A stretch of DNA of 64,000 bases from the NCBI GenBank assembly GCA_041736875.1, contig JBGSSV010000111.1:31-64030 (forward strand), read 5' to 3'. Below the pieces are notes generated by a model, which was given only the letters and a program-made list of their open reading frames with translations, did no database searches and had not been told where the DNA came from. The position numbers were made by a program, and so were the translations under genes. This stretch comes from Chthoniobacterales bacterium (lineage in GTDB: Bacteria; Verrucomicrobiota; Verrucomicrobiia; Chthoniobacterales; JACTMZ01). Of the stretch, positions 13,135 to 40,399 are shown one piece after another; position 1 is the stretch's first letter; the number at the start of each line of letters is the position of its first letter.

Positions 13135-13529
13135 AACCTTCCGCCCTGCGTCTACCCGTCCTCGCTCTTGCGGTGGTCGGTCTCGTCCTTGTGCTGGCCG
13201 GTTGCGACACGCCGGCCAAAACCGCACAGACTCTGGCCAATGACATCGTGGCTTACTCCGCCGACCCGCAACCCGAGACGGCGGTGCGGATCGAAGCTGA
13301 TTTCGCCCGCCTCGACGCACAGATCGAAAAGCTGCGCGCCGGGGGCCAGGAGGTGGAAGCTGGCGCATGGCAGCAGGAGCGCGACGCTTTGAAGCTTCGC
13401 TTTGCCGCCGCGCGCATGGCTGGCAACCTGCAGGGGGTGAAGAAGGCGGCGGAGGATCTGGGCAAGTCCTTCCGCCAGGCCGGTGAAGCTTTCGGCGAAG
13501 CCTTCAAGGACAAGCCCCCCGCCGAGTAA
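13131..13529 (+). CDS. lipoprotein (helical, unknown function)
   Basis: GTG at 13131 overlaps the pgi stop (GTGA). [25 protein letters not shown] carries a lipobox. The remainder is Ala/Glu/Lys-rich. Confidence 0.55.
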
Positions 13530-13617
13530 GGCGCGGTCCGGCGCAGGGCCGTTCATTTTCGTCTCCGTATTTGTCGCGGACTGCTTCATGCTCTTGACCC
13601 CCCAGTTTGGGGTTTTC

Positions 13618-14682
13618 ATGATTCTCGACCCCTCCAGCGTGACAGCCGAACAGCGGACCCAGGCTGCCCAACTTCTGGCCCAGTGGCCCATCTTCCGTGG
13701 TCTGCCCGGCGCGCTTTGTGAGGAGATCGTCGCCGAGTCGGAGTTTCGCTTCCACCGTGGCGGTGAGCATATCCATCCCGAGCATGACGTTGTCGGCATG
13801 GTTGTCTCCGGTCACCTCTTCCTTTGCCGCAGCGGCCTCGACGCCATGTCCGGCATTCTGCTCAACATCGGCCCCGGGCTCTCGCTCGGATTGTCCTGGG
13901 TTCTCTCCGGGTCCGACCACCTGCCCAATGTCACGCTCCACGCGGGCACCGATGCCCTGCTGCTGCGCATCTCGGGCGCCAGTCTGCGGACGCGATTTTT
14001 CGAGGATCTGGGCTTTTGGCGCCGGGCCCTTGTTCAGGTGACCATGGGTTTCGAGCGGGCCATCGATCATCTCTCCCTGCGGACGGCGGAAGTGCTCACG
14101 GCCGGCGAGGACACCGTGTCGGTCCTCATGCGATCGCTCGACCTGCGCGATCAGGAGACGGAGGCGCACTGCCGGAGGGTGCAAACCCTGAGCCTTCTCA
14201 TCGCCCGCACGATGGGAGTGGCGAAGGCCACGCAGCGGGAGATCGAGCTGGGCGCACTCGTCCATGACATCGGCAAGATCGGCGTGCCCGACAGCATTCT
14301 GCGCAAAGCGGGCAACCTCTCCCCCGACGACTGGGCCGTCATGCGCACCCACCCGGCCCTCGGATTGCAAATTGTCGGTGGTATCGCCTACCTCGAGCAG
14401 GCGACGGCCATCGTCGGGTATCATCATGAACGCTGGGATGGCTGCGGCTATCCGCAGGGTGTAGCTGGCGAGCATATTCCGCTGGCGGCCCGCATCTTCG
14501 CCGTGGCCGATGTCTACGATGCGCTGACCACGGCGCGAATTTACAAAAAAGCGTGGACGGCGGAGGAAGCCCGGGACGAAATTCTGCGCGAGTCGGGTCA
14601 ACGCTTTGATCCCAACGTCTGCGCCGCCTTCACATCCTGCTTTGATGAGGTCCGGCAGATTCCGGCCATTCCGCGCTTTTGA
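13618..14682 (+). CDS. HD-GYP domain phosphodiesterase with N-terminal cNMP-binding-like barrel
   Basis: Reads HDIGKIGVPDSIL...HHERWDGCGYPQG. The N-terminus reads WPIFRGLPGALCEEIVAESEFRFHRGGEHI. ATG 13618 (M46 of ORF 13483..14682). Confidence 0.85.
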   Translation: MILDPSSVTAEQRTQAAQLLAQWPIFRGLPGALCEEIVAESEFRFHRGGEHIHPEHDVVGMVVSGHLFLCRSGLDAMSGILLNIGPGLSLGLSWVLSGSDHLPNVTLHAGTDALLLRISGASLRTRFFEDLGFWRRALVQVTMGFERAIDHLSLRTAEVLTAGEDTVSVLMRSLDLRDQETEAHCRRVQTLSLLIARTMGVAKATQREIELGALVHDIGKIGVPDSILRKAGNLSPDDWAVMRTHPALGLQIVGGIAYLEQATAIVGYHHERWDGCGYPQGVAGEHIPLAARIFAVADVYDALTTARIYKKAWTAEEARDEILRESGQRFDPNVCAAFTSCFDEVRQIPAIPRF

Positions 14683-17891: not shown

Positions 17892-19577
17892 TCAGGCCAG
17901 GAAGTCGCCCACATGCAGGACCACGGAGCGGTCGTAGTCTTTGGTTGGCTCGTCGAGGAGGTCGTAGGCGACGAGGTTCGGGTGCTGTTTGGCGGCGTCG
18001 TTCCGCTGGGGGGCAAAGGTCCAATCGGTCATCCAATAGTAGGCCGCCCACCGTTTGTGTTCCATGCGCGAGAGACGCTCGACTTGCACGGGGCTGAGGC
18101 TGTCCCACTGGGCCTTCGTGATCGTCCCCGGATCCCACCCGGCGGCGCGAACTTTGAAGGGAATGTGATCCGCTTGGGAGCGGCTGGCCCCTTTTTGCTC
18201 CTCGCTCAAGTCCTCCCACGGGCGGAATGTGGCTTTGCCCTCGAGGTTCCGGGCGAGAGCTTCATTCCCGGCGGCGCGGGCCTCGGCGATTTGCGCATGG
18301 GTCTCGCGGATCCATTTTTCGTGAATCGTTCGCGCCGTCCGGTCGAGCGACTCGCCGATGACCGCTTCGTAGCCGCAGACATCTCCCGGCTGCGGGAGAA
18401 AACCGATGCAGTCCTTGAGCCGGCGATGGCGGGCGACCATCGAGCGAAGCGGTGAGTCGGACGGGGCAGTGATGAGGATCCGCAAGTTTGAGCGATCCGA
18501 TGTCTGCTCGAGGAGTTCTAGCGTGCGGGAGTAACCGCTGTTTCCTTCAGCCAGAGCAGGGAAGATGTTGAAACGGCCCGGGGTGGAAGCCAGAAGATCC
18601 GTCACTTGGCGGGAGAAGTGCTCCTCGTCCACCAGGTCCACCGCGTCGAGGTCCATGCACTGGGTGATGCCGGGGAACTGTCTCATGAGCATGGCCAAAT
18701 CGCGCGAAGCACTGGGGCCGACGAGGTGGAGGTGGACTCGCCGATCATCGGTGAAATGCCCGAGCAAGGCGTATTCAAAAGCCAGGGCCCGCCCGAGACT
18801 GCAGAGACCGGGCAGCACAACATGGACTTCGCCTTCGTCGGACTCGGGGGCAAAGTCGCGGATGGTTTGCCGCGCGATGTTGCGCGCCTCGCTGAAAACC
18901 CTTACCGGGCCTCCGCTGGTCGCCGGGGCGTCCTGCGCCCGGTGCCGCCAATACAAATCGCACAGCGAAGCCCTGTTGCCGTGGGCGTGCACCGAGGGCA
19001 CTCCGAGTTCCACGGCGGCCATGCTGATGATCAAGTTGTGCTCGTCGTCCGAGGTGGTCACAGCCACCTGCGCGGCTTTGGCGGCGCCGGCTTGGGCCAG
19101 CACACTCGCTTTCGTGGCGTCGCCGCAGACGACCAGAAAACCTTCGGCCTCGAGAACTTCGGCCCGGTCGGGGTCGCTTTCGATCAGCACAACCTGCCGC
19201 CCGCGTTCTTCCAAGTCCTTGGCAAGCACGGTTCCCTTGCGGCCAGCCCCGCAGATTACGGTGTGCCCGGTCAGGCGGCGGGCGCGAAAGTGGTTCCACT
19301 GACGTTGGAACAAGGCCACGCCCACGCGGAAAATGGCACCGAGCATGGTGAGCGGGGCCAACCATCTCGCCACCTCCAAGGTCCACGGCAGAGGGGCTTC
19401 AGCCGTGGTATTCCATGGAAAATAGTTCCAATAGAAGAGCTGGACCGCCCGATAGGCTGCGACCGGAAGTCCTCCCGCGTCGTTGAAGGATAAAAAGCCC
19501 CACGTGCCGAGCACGAGGGAGACCACGGCGGAAACGAGGAGGATGGCTCCGAAGTGGCTGCGAATCCTCCACCACAT
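17892..19577 (-). CDS. 2-TM protein with TrkA-N/RCK NAD-binding domain and two C-terminal RyR-type repeats
   Basis: N-terminal helices are present but there is no K+ selectivity filter (AAYRAVQLFYWNY...). The Rossmann region reads VICGAGRKGTVLAKDLEERGRQVVLIESD. RyR-like repeats: IHEKWIRE...FRPWEDLSEEQKGASRSQADHI and MEHKRWAAYYWMTDWTFAPQRNDAAKQHPNLVAYDLLDEPTKDYDRSVV. Confidence 0.65.
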   Translation of the reverse strand: MWWRIRSHFGAILLVSAVVSLVLGTWGFLSFNDAGGLPVAAYRAVQLFYWNYFPWNTTAEAPLPWTLEVARWLAPLTMLGAIFRVGVALFQRQWNHFRARRLTGHTVICGAGRKGTVLAKDLEERGRQVVLIESDPDRAEVLEAEGFLVVCGDATKASVLAQAGAAKAAQVAVTTSDDEHNLIISMAAVELGVPSVHAHGNRASLCDLYWRHRAQDAPATSGGPVRVFSEARNIARQTIRDFAPESDEGEVHVVLPGLCSLGRALAFEYALLGHFTDDRRVHLHLVGPSASRDLAMLMRQFPGITQCMDLDAVDLVDEEHFSRQVTDLLASTPGRFNIFPALAEGNSGYSRTLELLEQTSDRSNLRILITAPSDSPLRSMVARHRRLKDCIGFLPQPGDVCGYEAVIGESLDRTARTIHEKWIRETHAQIAEARAAGNEALARNLEGKATFRPWEDLSEEQKGASRSQADHIPFKVRAAGWDPGTITKAQWDSLSPVQVERLSRMEHKRWAAYYWMTDWTFAPQRNDAAKQHPNLVAYDLLDEPTKDYDRSVVLHVGDFLA

Positions 19578-19582
19578 GCCGG

Positions 19583-22333
19583 TTACTCCGACCTTTTGAA
19601 GAGGTCGGCCGTTTCCGCCGCCTCCTCCGCGACACGTTTGGCGGCCGCGGCAAAGCCGGGGTCAGCCGGATCCACGACGTCCTCCGTCTCATCCTCGGTG
19701 CGGATCCATCCGACCAATTGATCGTTCATGAAATTGAAAATATTCGTCACCTTACCGGTCTTCTTCTCCGTGGCCTGGCCCTCGCGCACCTGGAAAACCG
19801 AACGGAGGCTTCCCTTGGGGGTCCAATAATAAAAGGTGAATGTGCCGTCGGCCTCGCCCGTGGAGTCCACCAGCATGACGCGCATCAGGCTTTTCCCATC
19901 GAACCACCCGAGAGCATAATGTTCGCGGGAGCCGCCGTGTTCGGGAAGCTCCCGCCGGGCCTCCTGCCAGGCGCCGTCATCGGACTTGGCCTTCCAATCC
20001 TCACGCAGCGTCGCAAAGCTCTCCGCTTCCAAAACAACTTCCGCCAGCTTGGGCAGGAGGGCTTCGATGCTCGCGCGTTTGGCATCGTCCTCGGGCATGG
20101 CTTCCGCGGCAATCTCCGCCGCGGTGCGGGCATAAGCCACAGCCTCCGCCGCGCGGTTGTCGGCCCACAGATTGAGGGCTAGGGCTTGGTTGGCCGCCGC
20201 CAGCTCCGCCTTCGCCCCGGGTTGCTCGGTTTCCAGCAGGGTGATGTTCCGGCGCTGGAGCGCCTCGGCCTCCTTTCGGTCATCGAGGGCCCCATAAATG
20301 CCGGCCAGCAGGCCGCGGGCTTCGATCGTTTGAAGGTCACCCGCGCCGAGTTTGGCCTCCCGGATCTTGAGGCAGCGGTCGGCCAGGCCCCGGGCCGTTT
20401 CGTTGTCGTCGGCGAGGAGAAGCCGACTGGCCTCGATGAAGAGATTCACCGCATAGCCGGTATCATCCGCTCCCACCGCCTTCCCCTGTTCTTCCAAACG
20501 TCTAAGCACAAGCTTCTTGGCTCCCTCGGTATCGCCTCTCGCCTCCAGCAGTTCGCCGAGTCTTTCGAAGCTGTCGAGCGTGTCAGGCTGGGCCGCGCCG
20601 ATGGTGCGGATGCGGGTCTCGAGGACTTTCCGGGTGAGGATTTCGGCCTCGTCCAGATTCTCCGGCGACTTACTCCGGGTCAGCAGTCCGGCCAGGATCG
20701 TGGCCTGGGCCAAGGTGGGCGGCGCATCCGGGCCGACCGCGCGCTCCGAGGAGGCGAACGCCCGGCGCGCCAGAGCGATCGCCCCCGGATAGTCGTCCTG
20801 ATCCTCCCGCACGAAGGCCAGCATGATCACCGGATTCAAAGTCTCCTCGTGATCCGGTCCGAGCGATTTTTCGCGGGCGGCCAACACCTTGCGGTAAACT
20901 TCCTCCGCCTGGGGGAATTTTTTCTGGGAGTTGAGCGCATAAGCCAGATCCAGCATGGCGGACAGCGTCTCCGGGGCCTCCGGGCCGGATTTTTTTTCGT
21001 TGGCCTCCACCACGCCGCGGAAAAGTTTGAGCGATTCCTCTTGTTCGGCTTCCTCACCACTTATGAGGCTGCGGGCCAGCGCGAGCGTTGCCTCCAAGGT
21101 GGCCGGATCATCCGGTCCGAGTTCGCTCTCCTGCACTTCGAGGACGGAACGGTTCAGCTCGCGGCCCTCCTCGGGGGGAACAACCTTCGCGAGACTGGTC
21201 ATGAGGGCGAGCGTGGCCGGGTTCTTCGGGCCAAGCGCGGCATTGCCTTTGGCCCAATCCACGGCCTCGGAGAGTATTCTCCTGGGTTCCGTGCTCATCA
21301 CATCGCGGTCATACATGGCCATGGCCAGCGCGTTGGTGGCGGCGGCCCAAGCGGCCGGATCCTCCGTGCGGTCGAGCAGGGTGAGGCGCTCGGCTTGGGC
21401 GGTGATGGCCTCGTTGACCAGACCCGCAGCCAGTTGAGCCTCGGCCAAACGCTGGAGGGCGTCGGCGAGGTTGCGCTTCCCGCCGGCCCCTGTGCTGGCC
21501 CGCGCCGCAGCCACGGCCTGCTCGGCTTGGACGATGGCCTCCCGCACGGTGTTGCGGACTTCTTCGACGGATTGGTTGCTGGCCTGCGCCACATTTTGCT
21601 CCGCCTGCAGGGCGATTTGCTGCATGTCGCCTGCTCCGGCCTTGCGCAAGCGGGCCTGCTCGGCGAGCAGTTGTTCAATCAAGGCTCCCTGACGCGCGAG
21701 TTGATCGTTGGTCGCGGCAATGACCTTGGCTTGCTCGCCCTGGCGGCCGAGCAGGAAAATTCCGCCGCCGATGGCAATAACCGCCGCGGCCACGGCGACG
21801 ATGAGCGTGAGGCGCCGACGCCCGCGTTCCTTGGCCAGTTCCTCGCGCAGGTTCTCGACCGAGAGCTGGAGCTCGCGCGTGCGGGTCGAAAGTTCCTCGG
21901 GTGTGGCAAATTCGTAGAAAAGCTCGTCGCGTTGCAGGAGGCGGGCGCGGTGGTCGAGTTGGAGTTGCTGCTTGTCCTCCGGCTCGGGATCGTGCTTGTC
22001 GAAAGGGAAATCCTTGCCGCAAAGAAAGACATAGCACGGGAGCTTCAACTCCATCGCGATCTCGTATTCCATCTGCGTGAAACTCCGGCGGTCCGGCCCC
22101 GGGATCACCGGCTGAGGCTCGGCCCCGTAATAGAAGCCCGCGAGATGCACGACGGCGTCGCACGTCAGGATTTTCGTCCGCAGCATGTCGCGCACGGATT
22201 TGTAGTCGGGCGGGAAATCGTCCTGCACGATCGGCAGGCACTCCATCCGCCTGAGCCCCTCGGAAACCAGCCCCCGGGCGGTGCGAAGGTCGCGACTCGT
22301 GGCGCTGACGAAAATGCGTGGGACGGGTTGCAT
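19583..22333 (-). CDS. DUF4062 (TIR/N-deoxyribosyltransferase-like) - TM - coiled coil - TPR protein with unknown C-terminal domain
   Basis: Reads MQPVPRIFVSATSRDLRTARGLVSEGLRRMECLPIVQDDF...CDAVVHLAGFYYGAEP...SFTQMEYEIAMELKLPCYVFLC, which matches the DUF4062 pattern. TM helix is LTLIVAVAAAVIAIGGGIFLLG. There are many TPR_12-like units (LGPDHEETL, LGPDDPATL, SGPEAPETL, VGPDAPPTL). ATG 22333; the ORF-track start at 22369 is TTG. Confidence 0.65.
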   Translation of the reverse strand: MQPVPRIFVSATSRDLRTARGLVSEGLRRMECLPIVQDDFPPDYKSVRDMLRTKILTCDAVVHLAGFYYGAEPQPVIPGPDRRSFTQMEYEIAMELKLPCYVFLCGKDFPFDKHDPEPEDKQQLQLDHRARLLQRDELFYEFATPEELSTRTRELQLSVENLREELAKERGRRRLTLIVAVAAAVIAIGGGIFLLGRQGEQAKVIAATNDQLARQGALIEQLLAEQARLRKAGAGDMQQIALQAEQNVAQASNQSVEEVRNTVREAIVQAEQAVAAARASTGAGGKRNLADALQRLAEAQLAAGLVNEAITAQAERLTLLDRTEDPAAWAAATNALAMAMYDRDVMSTEPRRILSEAVDWAKGNAALGPKNPATLALMTSLAKVVPPEEGRELNRSVLEVQESELGPDDPATLEATLALARSLISGEEAEQEESLKLFRGVVEANEKKSGPEAPETLSAMLDLAYALNSQKKFPQAEEVYRKVLAAREKSLGPDHEETLNPVIMLAFVREDQDDYPGAIALARRAFASSERAVGPDAPPTLAQATILAGLLTRSKSPENLDEAEILTRKVLETRIRTIGAAQPDTLDSFERLGELLEARGDTEGAKKLVLRRLEEQGKAVGADDTGYAVNLFIEASRLLLADDNETARGLADRCLKIREAKLGAGDLQTIEARGLLAGIYGALDDRKEAEALQRRNITLLETEQPGAKAELAAANQALALNLWADNRAAEAVAYARTAAEIAAEAMPEDDAKRASIEALLPKLAEVVLEAESFATLREDWKAKSDDGAWQEARRELPEHGGSREHYALGWFDGKSLMRVMLVDSTGEADGTFTFYYWTPKGSLRSVFQVREGQATEKKTGKVTNIFNFMNDQLVGWIRTEDETEDVVDPADPGFAAAAKRVAEEAAETADLFKRSE

Positions 22334-22374
22334 GGGCGGAAATCCTAACGGAGCCCGGCTGGCTGGCAAGCTGG

Positions 22375-23298
22375 TTAGCGGGTCCCTCTGGGTGCCGGGG
22401 ACGGGGCTGGAGCGCTCTCCGGCTTTCCGACCAGCATCCGGCCGACAAACGTCCCGCCGAAGCCCTCCATCTTCGTGCGCACGTCGGTCATGGTCAGGGT
22501 TGTTTCATCGAGCAGGCCGTTAACTTTTTTCAGACTGGTATCGAGTTTGAGATTCACGTTGGTCACGGTTTTGGTCAGCTCGTCGGTGAGACCTTGGAGC
22601 CGGTCCAGGCTGACGTTGAGCGAGGTGAGGGCCTCGTCGATTTTGCCGTCCTCGCCGACTTGGAGTTTCAGGCTGGTGGTCACGCCTTCGACATTTTGCA
22701 GGGAAGCGGCGGCGGATGGAACAGCCTCTGCGAGTTCCTGCATGACCGACTTGGTGCGGCCTTTTTGCGGTTCGGTGAATTGACGGATCGTGGCGTCGAT
22801 CTGGTTTCCGAGCTTCACGTATTGCTCCATGATCGCGTTCATGTCGTTCTTGGGCTGCTCCTTCTGCAGCACGAGGGTGGGGGGCTGGCCGGCCTTGGGC
22901 TTGACCGCGGTGATGGCGTCCGGGGCGGATGAAAGGTCGAGGGTGATCGAACTCGGGGCGAGGGCCGACTGGACCACGCCCGCTTTGACGATTCCGATCG
23001 GGGCGAAGCGCCACTGGGCGAACGTGTCTTTAACGCCGGCGACGAGATGGAACTGCGCCTGGCCATCGGGCCCGAGCGAAGGCGTGACCTTGCGCACATT
23101 TCCGATCACGGCCCCGGCGCAACGGAGCTCCGAGCGGGGACCGAGACCCAGTAGGTCGTTCGAAGTAAAATGAATCTCCGAGGACTGACTCCAGACTCCC
23201 AGGCTGTCTTTGGTGATTTGAATGCCGATCCATGCACCCGCGATGGTCAACACGCAGAGCAGGACGACGATGGTTTGGATTTCGAGTTTCTTTTTCAA
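22375..23298 (-). CDS. mlaD: MlaD/MCE-family periplasmic component
   Basis: N-terminal TM helix IQTIVVLLCVLTIAGAWIGI. MCE-like segment SEIHFTSNDLLGLGPRSELRCAGAVIGNVRKVTPS...AQFHLVAGVKD. Long helical tail. The TTG start overlaps the mlaF stop (TTGA). Confidence 0.7.
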   Translation of the reverse strand: MKKKLEIQTIVVLLCVLTIAGAWIGIQITKDSLGVWSQSSEIHFTSNDLLGLGPRSELRCAGAVIGNVRKVTPSLGPDGQAQFHLVAGVKDTFAQWRFAPIGIVKAGVVQSALAPSSITLDLSSAPDAITAVKPKAGQPPTLVLQKEQPKNDMNAIMEQYVKLGNQIDATIRQFTEPQKGRTKSVMQELAEAVPSAAASLQNVEGVTTSLKLQVGEDGKIDEALTSLNVSLDRLQGLTDELTKTVTNVNLKLDTSLKKVNGLLDETTLTMTDVRTKMEGFGGTFVGRMLVGKPESAPAPSPAPRGTR

Positions 23299-23987
23299 TG
23301 GTTTCGGGTGGTGAAGGCTTGAAGGTGCTCATTTTGGGCCGCGTCCTCGCTGCGCACCAGCGTGTGTTCCGTGCCGTGGAGAAGGAGAATATGCGTGGCG
23401 ATGCGCCGGGCGAAGTCCAGATCCTGCGTGGCCACAACAATCCCGGTCAGGACCCCGGTTCGGACGAGGGTGACCAGAAGTTCCTCCACCAGAGCCTTCT
23501 TCGCGGGCGCCAAGGCGGCCACGGGCTCGTCGGCGATCAGGAGCCGGGTCCGGCCGGAGAGGGCCCGGGCCAGGGAGACGCAACGCTTGTCACCTTCGCT
23601 CAACTGATGGACCTCCTCGTTTTCGAGGTGTCCGCAGCCGACCAAGCGCATGCGCAGCCGGACCTTTTCCTGCAACTCTCCATCCAGGTCCAACCCGTGG
23701 ACGAGGAAAGGCAGGGCGATGTTCTCGAAGACGGTCATGTTGCGGATCAAGCCGGGGTGCTGAAAGACGACGCCCACCTCGGCCAGGGCGAGGTTCAGCT
23801 CGCGTCCGGCCACGTGCACCGAGCCCGGTGGGACCCGCAGGTGTCCGCTCAGGTGCGCGAGCAGGAGACTTTTGCCGGAGCCGTTGTCGCCGAGCACGGC
23901 CAGAATTTCGCCGGGCTGGACTTGAAAGGCCAGAGGCTCCCCGCCGAGGGAGAGACCTTGGACCGAGAGCGGCGGTGCCGTCTTCAT
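23295..23987 (-). CDS. mlaF: ABC transporter ATP-binding protein, MlaF-like with atypical motifs
   Basis: Walker A GDNGSGKS and Walker B LLIADEP are present. The signature is LSEGD (not LSGGQ), the D-loop is AALA, and the H-loop position reads VVATQD (Gln, not His). The ATG overlaps the mlaE stop (ATGA). Confidence 0.8.
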   Translation of the reverse strand: MKTAPPLSVQGLSLGGEPLAFQVQPGEILAVLGDNGSGKSLLLAHLSGHLRVPPGSVHVAGRELNLALAEVGVVFQHPGLIRNMTVFENIALPFLVHGLDLDGELQEKVRLRMRLVGCGHLENEEVHQLSEGDKRCVSLARALSGRTRLLIADEPVAALAPAKKALVEELLVTLVRTGVLTGIVVATQDLDFARRIATHILLLHGTEHTLVRSEDAAQNEHLQAFTTRNH

Positions 23988-24769
23988 TCAAGACTGAAGG
24001 CTGCGGTGAGCAGGCTGAGCAGGAGGTTGACGATCGTGGAGGAAAACACCGCGGTGGCCACCGCTGACGTGGTGATCTTGCCGACAAAGCCGCTCTCCGC
24101 CTTGGCCCCCATGAAGCCGAAAAAACCGGCGATGATCGACATGGCCGTCGCGGTGATGGCCAGTTTGGTCACGGTGAGCAACAAGGCTCCCGAGGTCACG
24201 CTCGAGGCGTAGGCCGAAATGAATTCCGTGAAACTCGTCCCGACCGCGATCCATGAAACCAGCCAAGCCCCGAGGCAGGCGGCATACACGCCGATGACCG
24301 CCAGCGAGGGGGCTGTAATGATGAGCGCGATGGCCCGCGGGGCGAAGATCATGTCCGCCGGATTCAAGCCCACTGCCTCCAGCGCATCGACTTCCTGCGA
24401 CACCCTCATGCTCGCGATGTCCGAGGTCAGCCCGACCACACCCTTCAGGACCACGAGATTGGCGATGGCGAAGGGGATGACAAATTGGATGAAGGCGCCG
24501 CCGAGATGCGGCAGCACCAAAGTTTGAAAGGCCTCCGGGCTGCCGGCATTGCCGATCACGCCATAGGCCGCCGCGAGGCCGTAGATGAAGGTCGTCAGGG
24601 CCGACGCTCCCGCCGTGCCTCCGAGGAAACCCAGCACCTGCCGCACCGTTTCGCGATCCACGACGGTGGTGCGCCCCGTCAGGACCCGCGGAATCACGCG
24701 CAAGCCGACGATCAGGATGGCTCCGAGCAGGCTCGTGATCGAATAGCGGGTTGTCCGCTCAAACGTCAT
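23984..24769 (-). CDS. mlaE: MlaE/YrbE-family ABC permease
   Basis: About 261 aa from ATG 24769 (M90 of ORF 23984..25036; alternative M82 at 24793). Polytopic, with LTSDIASMRVSQEVDALEAVGLNPADMIFAPRAIALII. Confidence 0.75.
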   Translation of the reverse strand: MTFERTTRYSITSLLGAILIVGLRVIPRVLTGRTTVVDRETVRQVLGFLGGTAGASALTTFIYGLAAAYGVIGNAGSPEAFQTLVLPHLGGAFIQFVIPFAIANLVVLKGVVGLTSDIASMRVSQEVDALEAVGLNPADMIFAPRAIALIITAPSLAVIGVYAACLGAWLVSWIAVGTSFTEFISAYASSVTSGALLLTVTKLAITATAMSIIAGFFGFMGAKAESGFVGKITTSAVATAVFSSTIVNLLLSLLTAAFSLE

Positions 24770-24806
24770 TGCTGTTGTCGCTTTGGCAGCCATACATTGG
24801 CGGCAG
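24770..24806. promoter_or_regulatory. very short divergent intergenic region between the mla-led operon and the DUF4071/SLOG operon
   Basis: mlaE ATG is at 24769. Rightward start candidates are TTG 24783, ATG 24807 and ATG 24831. No promoter boxes were recognised. The regulatory role is inferred only from divergent geometry. Confidence 0.3.
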
Positions 24807-26666
24807 ATGACGCACGGAACCGCCGCCACTATGCAAGTCAAATCGGATCGAGCCTGCGACAGCATTGACGCCGTCGCCGTGGCCGTGGACGCCCTGCGGG
24901 GGCGCCTGCAGAGCGGGGAAAAAATACCGCCGCGCGAACTGCGCGGAATCTGGGGTGAGCGCCTCCGCCCGTTCTGGCGGCTGAAGATCGACATGTATCG
25001 CGCCTTGTCCCGCCGGTTGCTCGAGCAAGGCGACAACTACCTGGCGAGCGAAGTAGCCGACGAGGGCGGGCAATTCTTCGGTGACGATGTGGCGTTGATT
25101 TTGACCCGCGCCCTGGCGACGGCGCGGAGCGGGGCGCCGCAGAGTGCACAGGCCTTTCTGCGGCAGAAGGAGGAGTTGCTGGACGAGGCCGACGAGGCCA
25201 AAAGTTTGCTGGCCCGCACCTTCAAGGATCTTTGGAAATCCTCGCGCGAGGAGCATTACCTGCAGGAGTCGTTCGACCTCTATCACCTCGACTACACGAC
25301 GACCAGGGGCGACCGGACCTTTCCGGGTGTGAACGCTGCCAGCATGGCGCTGTTTCTCGGTCGCCGCGACCTTGCCGGGCGCATCGCCGGGGAGGTGCTG
25401 GCCCTCTTGCGCGCCAAAGCCGACACCGCGAACTACTGGGATGAAGTCACCATCGCGGAGTGCCTGCTCGTCGCCGGCGAGATCGAGGCGGCCCGCTCGG
25501 CTTATGCCGGAGCGGCCAGCCGCGATCACGTCGCCCACGCCCACCTCGCGACCACCCGCGGCCAGGCCCGGCTCCTGCTCAGGCAACTTGAACGCGGCGA
25601 ATCCGAGTTCGATCCGTGTTTCCCGCTGCCCGGCGTCATTGCCTTCACGGGACACCGCATCGATGGGCCAGACCGGGCTGCGCCCCGGTTGCCCCACGAT
25701 ATGACCCCGGCCATCAAAGAGCGCATTCGCGAGGCCATCGCGAAATCCGGAGCCGGCTTCGGTTACGCGGCCGCGGCCAATGGCTCGGACATTCTCTTCC
25801 TCGAATGCATGCAGGAGGCCGGCCTCGAGACCTACATCCACCTTCCCCTGCCCGAGGAGGACTTCATCCGTGAGAGCGTTCTGAATCCCGCATTTCCCGA
25901 GTGGTTGGAGCGCTTTCGAAAAGTCACCGCCCACGCCACCGAATACACTTGCGCGACGCACGCCGGCCACGAGGCGCTTGATTTCGACTACGGCAACCGC
26001 CTCATGCTCGGCGCGGCGAGCCAGCGCGCACGCCAACTGGGCTCCGAACTGCATTTTCTCACCGTTTGGGATGGTGTCCCCGCAGCGCTCGGGAGCGGGG
26101 GCACGGCGGATTACGTCCGCGTGGCCCGAGAATTCGGCTGCGCGGTCGAGATCATCGACATCCCCGGGCCGCGGCCCGGGCAGCCGGAGGAGCAAACCGC
26201 GCCCGCGGCGGGCCAGGGCCAACTCCTCTCCATCCTCACGATTTTCCTCCGGCCCGACGAGAAGTCCGAGGCCAGGCTGGCCGACTTGGCCAGTGACGCC
26301 ATTCACAGCGAGGTCTCCGACACCCGTGTGCGCATCTTCTTCCGAAACCAAGCAGCCGCAGCGATGGCTGCTTGCGGGATCCGCCGACATCTGGCCGACG
26401 TCCTCACGGGCGCGTTGGGATTGCACGCCGGACCCGCCCGTCTCTCTACGCACCCCCTGACGGGCAAACAGATCGTGCGCGGCGCCCATGTTACCGTCTC
26501 CGATGAGCTGGCCGCCCTCACTCCTGCCGGTCTCATCTACGCCTCATCCGCCTTCGCCGCGCTGCTCGGTTTGGAGAGTTCCGGCGATGCCCGGAGCGAG
26601 TTCCTTGGTTATCGCGCGTTGACCAGCGGCGGTCGGCGGGAGCCTGTCTTTCAAATCCTCGGCTGA
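24807..26666 (+). CDS. DUF4071 (TRAF-binding-domain-like) - SLOG/YpsA-like Rossmann - degenerate class III cyclase-homology protein
   Basis: DUF4071 pattern: LLARTFKDLWKSS...FPGVNAASMALFLG...NYWDEVTIAECLLVAGEIEAA. SLOG/YpsA-like region: VIAFTGHRIDGP...IKERIREAIAKSGAGFGYAAAANGSDILFLECMQEAGLETYIHLPLP. CHD-like tail: ILTIFLRPDEKSE...RIFFRNQAAAAMA...LGLHAGPARL, which lacks both metal-binding Asp. The start is uncertain (24783, 24807 or 24831). Confidence 0.6.
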   Translation: MTHGTAATMQVKSDRACDSIDAVAVAVDALRGRLQSGEKIPPRELRGIWGERLRPFWRLKIDMYRALSRRLLEQGDNYLASEVADEGGQFFGDDVALILTRALATARSGAPQSAQAFLRQKEELLDEADEAKSLLARTFKDLWKSSREEHYLQESFDLYHLDYTTTRGDRTFPGVNAASMALFLGRRDLAGRIAGEVLALLRAKADTANYWDEVTIAECLLVAGEIEAARSAYAGAASRDHVAHAHLATTRGQARLLLRQLERGESEFDPCFPLPGVIAFTGHRIDGPDRAAPRLPHDMTPAIKERIREAIAKSGAGFGYAAAANGSDILFLECMQEAGLETYIHLPLPEEDFIRESVLNPAFPEWLERFRKVTAHATEYTCATHAGHEALDFDYGNRLMLGAASQRARQLGSELHFLTVWDGVPAALGSGGTADYVRVAREFGCAVEIIDIPGPRPGQPEEQTAPAAGQGQLLSILTIFLRPDEKSEARLADLASDAIHSEVSDTRVRIFFRNQAAAAMAACGIRRHLADVLTGALGLHAGPARLSTHPLTGKQIVRGAHVTVSDELAALTPAGLIYASSAFAALLGLESSGDARSEFLGYRALTSGGRREPVFQILG

Positions 26667-33931: not shown

Positions 33932-34090
33932 GGTGCGGGGAGAATGGGCAAGAACGCTCCGATTCCGCAAGCCGGGAATCGGGCCAAAGCCGGGGTCGGC
34001 GCCGTGCCGGATTTCTTGGTCCGGTTGGTGGCCTCCTGATTGCGTGTTTTATTCCATTGCCATGTTGAACTCAGACCTGCATGGTCCGCC

Positions 34091-35581
<1,491 letters not shown>

Positions 35582-36763: not shown

Positions 36764-40313
<3,550 letters not shown>

Positions 40314-40399
40314 ATGACATAGCGAGATTATCGGCTCGCGCACCCTGCGGCGATGGAAAATTTGCCTCCGGCGGCGGACCCGCTATTTTGCCCTCCTCG

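Follow-up and report, generated by a model that had tools for sequence, protein, structure and literature searches.

We describe a gene (24807..26666, plus strand) in a 64,000-nucleotide stretch of DNA from a Chthoniobacterales bacterium (assembly GCA_041736875.1, contig JBGSSV010000111.1, positions 31 to 64,030 of the forward strand; this whole stretch is called the window below). Its 619-amino-acid (aa) product, the target of this analysis, is a protein of three domains: a helical TPR-S domain at the N-terminus, a YpsA-like SLOG domain in the middle and a C-terminal domain with the fold of class III nucleotide cyclases. The clade to which it belongs descends from catalytically competent cyclases, and in this clade the loss of the catalytic residues is complete while the fold is retained. 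The two putative ligand-binding modules, TPR-S and SLOG, are under strong constraint; the former output domain has been relaxed, not lost. The same clade is linked head-to-head with an Mla-type operon, and this linkage is both conserved and specific to it. The novelty lies in this dead-cyclase clade and its genomic linkage; the TPR-S/YpsA/cyclase family itself is large and not new.

Gene and domain architecture

The open reading frame (ORF) can begin at 24783 (TTG) or at 24807 (ATG), and its stop codon lies at 26664-26666. Conservation of the ATG and of the N-terminal peptide (MTHGT or MTYGT) in five related loci supports 24807, the start adopted in an initial annotation of the window that had been made without database searches; the peptide strings quoted there were all found in the translation. 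A search of 5.8 billion proteins returned 92 homologues, mostly full length and from 91% down to 25% identical, and the gene is therefore real. Homologues P0001-P0040 are ~600 aa long and 37-91% identical to the target, the named ones belonging to Terrimicrobiaceae, Chthoniobacter and Verrucomicrobia. P0041-P0091, at ~30% identity, are spread over Acidobacteriota, Cyanobacteria, Verrucomicrobia and further phyla. Judged by its homologues, the window most probably stems from a Terrimicrobiaceae/Chthoniobacterales genome. The surrounding DNA is chromosomal, with a GC content of ~65% across the window.

An AlphaFold2 model of the whole protein (predicted local distance difference test score, pLDDT, 90.8; predicted template modelling score, pTM, 0.89) consists of a helical solenoid (residues 20-261), an alpha/beta domain (276-450) and an alpha+beta domain (472-618). 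O-GlcNAc transferases, which likewise contain TPR and Rossmann parts, topped the fold search with this model; the resemblance is generic (root-mean-square deviation ~18 Å, template modelling (TM) score ~0.25) and was set aside, the ambiguity being resolved by modelling the middle domain alone.

The only significant Pfam match of the target is to TPR-S (PF20308); it covers residues 93-180 and scores 42.3 bits, above the curated gathering threshold of 27.6 (E=1.2e-10). The same model matches all but a few of the homologues. Near-invariant residues of the domain are R137, K140, D141, Y159, N176, A177, A178, Y210, W211, T215 and E218. The helical motifs pointed out in the initial annotation (KD, G[IV]NAA and YW..T..E) are near-invariant in all 87 sequences of the full-family alignment. 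That annotation had named the domain DUF4071, now MAP3K_TRAF_bd (PF13281). As a statement of remote homology the name is approximately right: relatives of 30% identity match PF13281 with E values of 1e-9 to 1e-11 (profile positions 171-367, overlying the TPR-S stretch), and the family profile matches human ASK1/MAP3K5 (5ulm, E=8.8e-4, profile positions 103-212; 8qgy, E=3.1e-3). The precise family, however, is TPR-S, and the target itself has no PF13281 match at E <= 1.

Loss of the cyclase catalytic residues

The C-terminal segment retrieved class III cyclases by two routes, in agreement with its earlier designation as a cyclase-homology domain (CHD). In fold searches with the full model it matched Cya2 (2w01), CyaB (3r5g), Rv1900c (1ybt) and Ma1120 (5d0g), with E values of ~1e-5 to 2e-4 and target TM scores of 0.57-0.68. 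The family profile matched cyclase sequences in the PDB with E values down to 1.4e-11, the matches including domains of soluble guanylyl cyclase (sGC) and adenylyl cyclase (AC). PF00211 does not match the target alone and is carried by most distant homologues. By fold and homology the domain is thus a class III cyclase; the Asp/Asp/Arg set needed for catalysis is missing.

The distant relatives carry the motifs LFADxxGFSKL, NTWGDGLYFVF, RIGLHAGPV and G.HV[SN]RAARIEP. At the positions of the two metal-binding Asp and the transition-state Arg the target has Pro, Thr and Glu, the Asn/Ser position is lost as well, and the stretch leading from the first strand to the GD strand is ~35 residues shorter. 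The loss of the metal-binding Asp and of the Asn/Arg pair, already noted in the initial annotation, is borne out by comparison with 78 relatives that keep Asp/Asp/Arg. One placement needs correction: the equivalent of the second metal-binding Asp (GD motif) had been put at FFRNQA, and it is the DT in SEVSDTRVRIFF, just upstream. Because both metal-binding Asp and the transition-state Arg are gone, the clade cannot make cyclic nucleoside monophosphates (cNMPs).

To place this loss we used a scan of GTDB with one genome per species, which gave at least 515 loci with relatives; the best 80 were kept, and catalytic state was scored by alignment to a model of the cyclase domain derived from active members. 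Asp/Asp/Arg was kept in all 78 complete distant loci (LFADxxGFS, NTWGD, HV[SN]xAARIE). In the clade of the target, all three residues were gone from each of the 12 locus records that have DNA there (44-100% identity), and the alignment shows the same for the deeper members P0038-P0040. The loss is located in one lineage of Verrucomicrobia, namely Chthoniobacterales/Terrimicrobiaceae and deeper relatives. We refer to the two sets as the dead and the active clade.

The position of the canonical transition-state Asn is a Ser in most 'active' members (HVSRAARIE in L006, L007 and L009, for example) and an Asn in the cyanobacterial ones (HVNHAARIE). Outside the dead clade, P0081, P0087 and P0089 also lack a PF00211 match, and P0089 is visibly devoid of Asp/Asp/Arg; inactivation may therefore have happened repeatedly in the family.

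Once the best conserved part of the protein, the inactive domain has become the least conserved. Mean pairwise identity in the active clade is 0.55 for TPR-S, 0.58 for SLOG and 0.71 for the cyclase domain, as against 0.63, 0.61 and 0.45, respectively, in the dead clade. The domain is nevertheless kept at full length throughout the dead clade, with GLHxGP, IYASxAFAALLGL and EFLGxR conserved. Polar residues of the pocket type that are invariant in both clades are found in SLOG (G282, H283, G326, D328, E333, W366, R369, G432 and T433) and in TPR-S (R137, K140, D141, N176, Y210, W211, T215 and E218).

The middle domain

Neither whole-protein phmmer nor domain-profile searches of PDB sequences gave a match for the middle domain, nor did scans of 24 members of the family against Pfam at E <= 10, the Pfam YpsA model missing the target. 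Since direct sequence searches found nothing, SLOG membership was tested via fold and profile-profile comparison. The isolated domain (residues 262-458) was modelled with a pLDDT of 92.2, and its top fold match in the PDB was Bacillus subtilis YpsA (2nx2; E=3.4e-7, TM 0.62/0.68, 194 columns). DprA from two species, ShosA, the Moco carrier protein, TM1055 and LOG followed, with E values ranging to 5e-3; all of these belong to the SLOG superfamily, and by its fold so does the middle domain.

In hhalign, the profile of the domain gave no significant match to the single sequence of YoqJ, the YpsA paralogue of the SPbeta prophage (Pfam YpsA, E=6e-22), with a probability of 0.13% and E=0.45. Against an alignment of 19 YoqJ/YpsA members, all of them PF06908, the probability was 96% and E=4.6e-9 over 161 columns. 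The motifs of the domain are FTGHR (280-284), GxD (G326-S-D328), E333, LPLP (346-349), W366, R369, G402, WDG (421-423) and GGT (431-433), and the alignment puts FTGHR with FTGHR, GxD with GxD, LP(L/F) [(L/I)P(F/L)] and WDG...GGT with YDG...GGT in register. G326-S-D328, which aligns with the GxD of YoqJ/YpsA, is invariant in 87 of 87 aligned family members; in the YpsA clade, GxD/E is the signature predicted to bind substrate (PMC6459960).

On this profile and model evidence, the middle domain is a YpsA-family (PF06908) SLOG domain, and the initial call of SLOG/YpsA, made from the motifs, stands. Searched against 1.84 billion proteins, its profile reached 6,539 cluster representatives at E <= 1e-3; at the stricter limit of E <= 1e-30 the number was 1,436. 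Among the contexts of the YpsA family drawn by Brzozowski et al. 2019, as given in the figure legend, are adenylyl/guanylyl cyclases (PMC6459960).

A conserved divergent Mla-type operon

Upstream of the target, on the opposite strand, lie genes for an MlaE-type permease and an MlaF-type ATPase of an ATP-binding cassette (ABC) transporter, followed by an MlaD-like gene, a DUF4062-TPR gene and a TrkA_N-RyR gene (Table 1). These five genes overlap or are separated by at most 5 base pairs (bp), and the same-strand gaps of 5 bp suggest one five-gene operon. The start codons of MlaE and the target are 13 bp apart, a spacing kept in five loci (the window, L003, L011, L013 and L015), so that the promoter of either gene must be located within its divergent neighbour. 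An alignment of the divergent intergenic region showed conserved start codons; a shared operator was not obvious except among the closest relatives.

Divergent MlaE and MlaF genes stand beside the target gene in 13 of 14 distinct dead-clade loci, which span 37-91% identity: the window, Chthoniobacter flavus L001 (59%), L003 (72%), L005 (44%), the P0039 contig (38%), L091 (37%), L011, L013, L014, L015, L016, L095 and L096. A metagenome scan for further close relatives returned only three loci, two of them new. MlaE identity declines in parallel with that of the target, from 91% to 39%, and orthologues of the MlaD-like gene come after MlaF in related loci. The DUF4062-TPR gene follows the Mla genes in eight loci (the window, L003, L011, L013, L015, L016, L095 and L096), and the TrkA_N-RyR gene is present in seven (the window, L011, L013, L016, L095, L096 and the P0039 contig). 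On the other flank of the target the genes vary in almost every locus: the window has a CHD-kinase, C. flavus and L014 have a TIR gene, the P0039 contig has a PLD-domain gene, and hypothetical genes are found elsewhere.

MlaE adjoins the family member in none of the 78 active-cyclase loci. The neighbours there are a TIR/DUF4062 and nSTAND1 pair (~14 loci), a TIR gene (~8) or a DUF4062 gene (~9), the remainder having none of these; in L006, the end of a TIR-AAA_35 gene overlaps the start of the active relative. TIR or DUF4062 genes thus recur beside both clades. Most active relatives carry a fused N-terminal RyR domain, whereas in the dead clade RyR sits on the separate, clustered TrkA_N-RyR gene; this fused-versus-split ('Rosetta-stone') arrangement argues for a functional connection.

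A lipid-related role of the transporter fits the content of L005 (3426-7928), where a fatty-acid hydroxylase and an acyltransferase lie between MlaF and the MlaD-like gene. In the same locus, that of a 44%-identical relative, a SIR2-TIR protein and an nSTAND1-WD40 protein are encoded just past the Mla cluster.

Table 1. Features of the target and of its neighbourhood, in window coordinates
Feature	Coordinates	Strand	Evidence
Target: TPR-S + YpsA-like SLOG + inactive cyclase-homology protein, 619 aa	24807..26666	+	ORF, 92 homologues, model
Helical TPR-S / ASK1-type (MAP3K_TRAF_bd-like) solenoid, residues ~20-261	24864..25589	+	Pfam, profile match
YpsA-like SLOG (Rossmann-like) domain, residues ~270-455	25614..26171	+	Fold search, hhalign
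Shortened class III cyclase-homology domain, residues ~470-619	26214..26663	+	Fold, family profile, alignment
MlaE-type ABC permease, divergent from target	23984..24793	-	Pfam PF02405, E 1e-26
MlaF-type ABC ATPase, overlaps MlaE stop codon	23295..23987	-	Pfam ABC_tran, E 6e-28
MlaD-like membrane-anchored third gene, weak assignment	22375..23298	-	Sub-threshold MlaD, E 0.047, residues 40-79
DUF4062 (TIR-like) + TPR, 928 aa, 5 bp after MlaD-like gene	19583..22369	-	DUF4062 E 1.8e-12, TPR_12
TrkA_N + RyR, 561 aa, two N-terminal hydrophobic helices, 5 bp after DUF4062-TPR	17892..19577	-	TrkA_N E 7e-24, RyR E 2e-14
CHD-kinase: class III cyclase + Ser/Thr kinase + TPR-like repeats, 1481 aa, 8 bp past target stop codon	26675..31120	+	Domain matches

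Other genes in the window

The N-terminal cyclase domain of the CHD-kinase downstream of the target has the motifs FTDMVGST, NGDSF and VDTCARV, with Asp/Asp/Arg present and an Asp at the position of the canonical Asn. The protein resembles TOMM/peptide-modification kinase/cyclase fusions at sub-threshold NCBIfam scores. It was considered as a conserved partner and rejected, being missing from all other clade loci, including that of the 90%-identical L096.

Some 10 kb from the cluster, a 399-aa protein (13483..14682, plus strand) has an HD_5/HD domain (E=4e-40); cyclic-nucleotide phosphodiesterases are among the proteins with domains of this type. In a 513-aa protein (34040..35581, plus strand), a phage tail collar domain is joined to collagen triple-helix repeats. 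The 635-aa ORF at 38436..40343 (minus strand) has GreA/GreB N- and C-terminal domains confined to its last ~160 residues, the rest being either a long N-terminal extension or an over-extended ORF call.

A tentative model and its alternatives

We favour, tentatively and with real reservations, a reading in which the target is a pseudo-cyclase nucleotide sensor or adaptor that arose from (RyR)-TPR-S-YpsA-like SLOG-class III cyclases and probably works with the adjacent operon. That the target binds a ligand, what this ligand is and with which partner it works are what we infer, and the proposed mechanism has three steps. The SLOG module, the TPR-S module or both would bind a nucleotide-derived ligand, most likely an NAD-derived product (NAD, nicotinamide adenine dinucleotide). 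Such a ligand is favoured by analogy with YpsA-clade SLOG domains, which have been linked to the sensing of NAD/ADP-ribose (ADPR) and cyclic ADPR (PMC6459960; PMC9503650), and because of the recurrent TIR/DUF4062 neighbours. The signal would then be relayed through protein-protein contacts or oligomerisation, with no second messenger, the retained cyclase-fold domain possibly serving as a dimerisation or interaction module. The likeliest partners would be the products of the divergent operon (MlaE-MlaF-MlaD-like, often with DUF4062-TPR and TrkA_N-RyR).

A more specific and unlikely version holds that, in Verrucomicrobia, a sensor that formerly drove the synthesis of cNMPs was rewired to become a regulator without catalysis. 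It would pass a nucleotide signal, either TIR-like (DUF4062) or NAD-derived, to the lipid ABC transporter of Mla type as a ligand-gated accessory subunit of the latter, in the position that MlaB has in Proteobacteria. If it were true, nucleotide signalling would be joined to outer-membrane lipid homeostasis.

Several points weigh against the sensor or adaptor reading. The target has no recognised ABC-transporter-binding domain, and the assignment of the third operon gene to MlaD is weak (E=0.047). The P0038 contig, the sole exception among the 14 loci, has no Mla genes upstream, and the Mla linkage could reflect co-regulation or synteny inherited within one phylum. The SLOG domain could be an enzyme like the LOG-type members, which would make 'adaptor' wrong. 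Finally, the defence models of PADLOC-DB v2 matched neither the target nor the active relative P0052, the DUF4062-TPR protein or the TrkA_N-RyR protein, so that a role in a conflict system is unsupported.

The initial annotation had proposed a nucleotide-sensing adaptor rather than an enzyme. For the cyclase domain this is right; the SLOG domain is another matter, as binding and catalysis would be equally compatible with its invariant residues (His, Asp, Glu, Arg and Thr). The target might still be an enzyme through its YpsA-like SLOG domain, performing LOG-type N-glycosidic cleavage or turning over an NAD- or ADPR-derived signal, with TPR-S as a regulator and the dead cyclase as a structural remnant. 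SLOG domains are described as sensors or nucleotide-processing enzymes (PMC6459960; PMC9503650), LOG structures are among our fold matches, and H283, D328, E333, R369 and T433 could form a catalytic as well as a binding site. We nevertheless find this alternative rather doubtful: by fold and profile the closest proteins are YpsA and YoqJ, and PMC6459960 reports no catalytic activity for these. The LOG structures match far more weakly (E ~3e-3). Moreover, the LOG motif, PGGxGTxxE, is matched only partly by SGGTAD in the target.

Class III cyclases function as dimers whose active sites are shared across the interface. The dead domain might therefore act as a dominant-negative or regulatory partner in heterodimers with the CHD-kinase or with an active TPR-S-SLOG-CHD paralogue; since the active sites span the interface, such heterodimers would be inactive. 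The retained fold and the conserved patch GLHxGP and IYASxAFAALLGL, the proximity of the CHD-kinase in the window and the occurrence of active-type family members in Chthoniobacterales genomes are all consistent with this proposal. It is improbable, however, given that the CHD-kinase is peculiar to the window among the clade loci and that the cyclase domain is the least conserved region of the protein. Nor do we give much credence to the proposal that adjacency to the Mla genes is functionally meaningless inherited synteny, the target being a free-standing TPR-S/SLOG signalling protein with a decaying cyclase domain. Every Mla-linked locus with an assignable taxon is verrucomicrobial, as that proposal would have it, the P0038 contig shows that linkage can be absent, and active relatives often stand alone (L008 and L009, for example). 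Yet the pairing persists to 37-44% protein identity although all other neighbours have been reshuffled, the 13-bp spacing of the start codons is kept in five loci, and a domain kept at full length with conserved motifs throughout the clade is unlike a decaying remnant.

For the TPR-S/YpsA/cyclase family, with its at least 515 GTDB-species loci, there is no experimentally defined ligand or role. Under the sensor or adaptor reading, the dead clade would be a natural separation-of-function variant, in which the modules for sensing persist without the output, next to a new genomic partner that is tightly conserved. One of its members, CfE428DRAFT_1118, is encoded by the cultured Chthoniobacter flavus Ellin428, which makes the ligands of TPR-S and SLOG, signalling by contacts through a pseudo-cyclase and nucleotide control of Mla-type transport testable. 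In the literature searched, whose coverage did not extend to two key comparative-genomics papers, we did not find the Mla-linked clade with its inactive cyclase described.

Comparison with known systems

The closest counterparts of the target are the active TPR-S/YpsA-SLOG/class III fusions (for example Halomicronema hongdechloris XM38_047160), annotated as 'TRAFs-binding domain-containing protein' or 'class 3 adenylate cyclase/TPR'. They have the same domain order, are collinear with it over at least 90% of the length at ~30% identity, and have in common with it the invariant SLOG and TPR-S residues and the TIR/DUF4062 neighbours. The active fusions keep Asp/Asp/Arg in all 78 complete loci, mostly have an N-terminal RyR domain and never stand beside MlaE; in the dead clade, by contrast, the cyclase domain is shortened and inactive, RyR is absent from the protein and the Mla-type operon lies head-to-head with the gene.

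Retention of a class III fold for pairing or regulation after loss of catalytic residues is also known from the C1 and C2 domains of mammalian AC and from the alpha and beta subunits of sGC. In those cases each half retains a complementary subset of the catalytic residues, and together they form one working site. The target has lost both subsets, and no composite active site is therefore possible from it.

B. subtilis YpsA (2nx2) and SPbeta YoqJ are the nearest relatives of the middle domain, by the best fold match and by the common motifs FTGHR, GxD and GGT. They are single-domain proteins of ~180-225 aa, whereas the SLOG domain of the target sits between TPR-S and a cyclase-fold domain. In Firmicutes, YpsA has been tied to GpsB, to cell division and to oxidative stress (PMC6459960).

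In two-gene TIR-TPR systems of the BcTir/BcTpr type, a TPR sensor-type domain recurs with TIR, YpsA or LSDAT (SLOG) (bioRxiv 10.1101/2023.05.26.542521). That preprint credits such TPR assemblies to Burroughs and Aravind 2020. The association of DUF4071 with TIR and SLOG modules, named in the initial annotation, agrees with this literature and with the TIR/DUF4062 neighbours found here. The target family differs from these systems in having no defence-model match, and its TIR-like gene is the DUF4062-TPR gene downstream of the transporter operon.

Beyond bacteria, the TPR-S fold is found in the central regulatory TPR region of human ASK1/MAP3K5 (PF13281; PDB 5ulm), a remote similarity that was detected as a match of the family profile. 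ASK1 couples this region to a kinase, the target to SLOG and cyclase domains. A bacterial ligand, if defined, would thus inform the small-molecule sensing that has been proposed for the ASK1 region.

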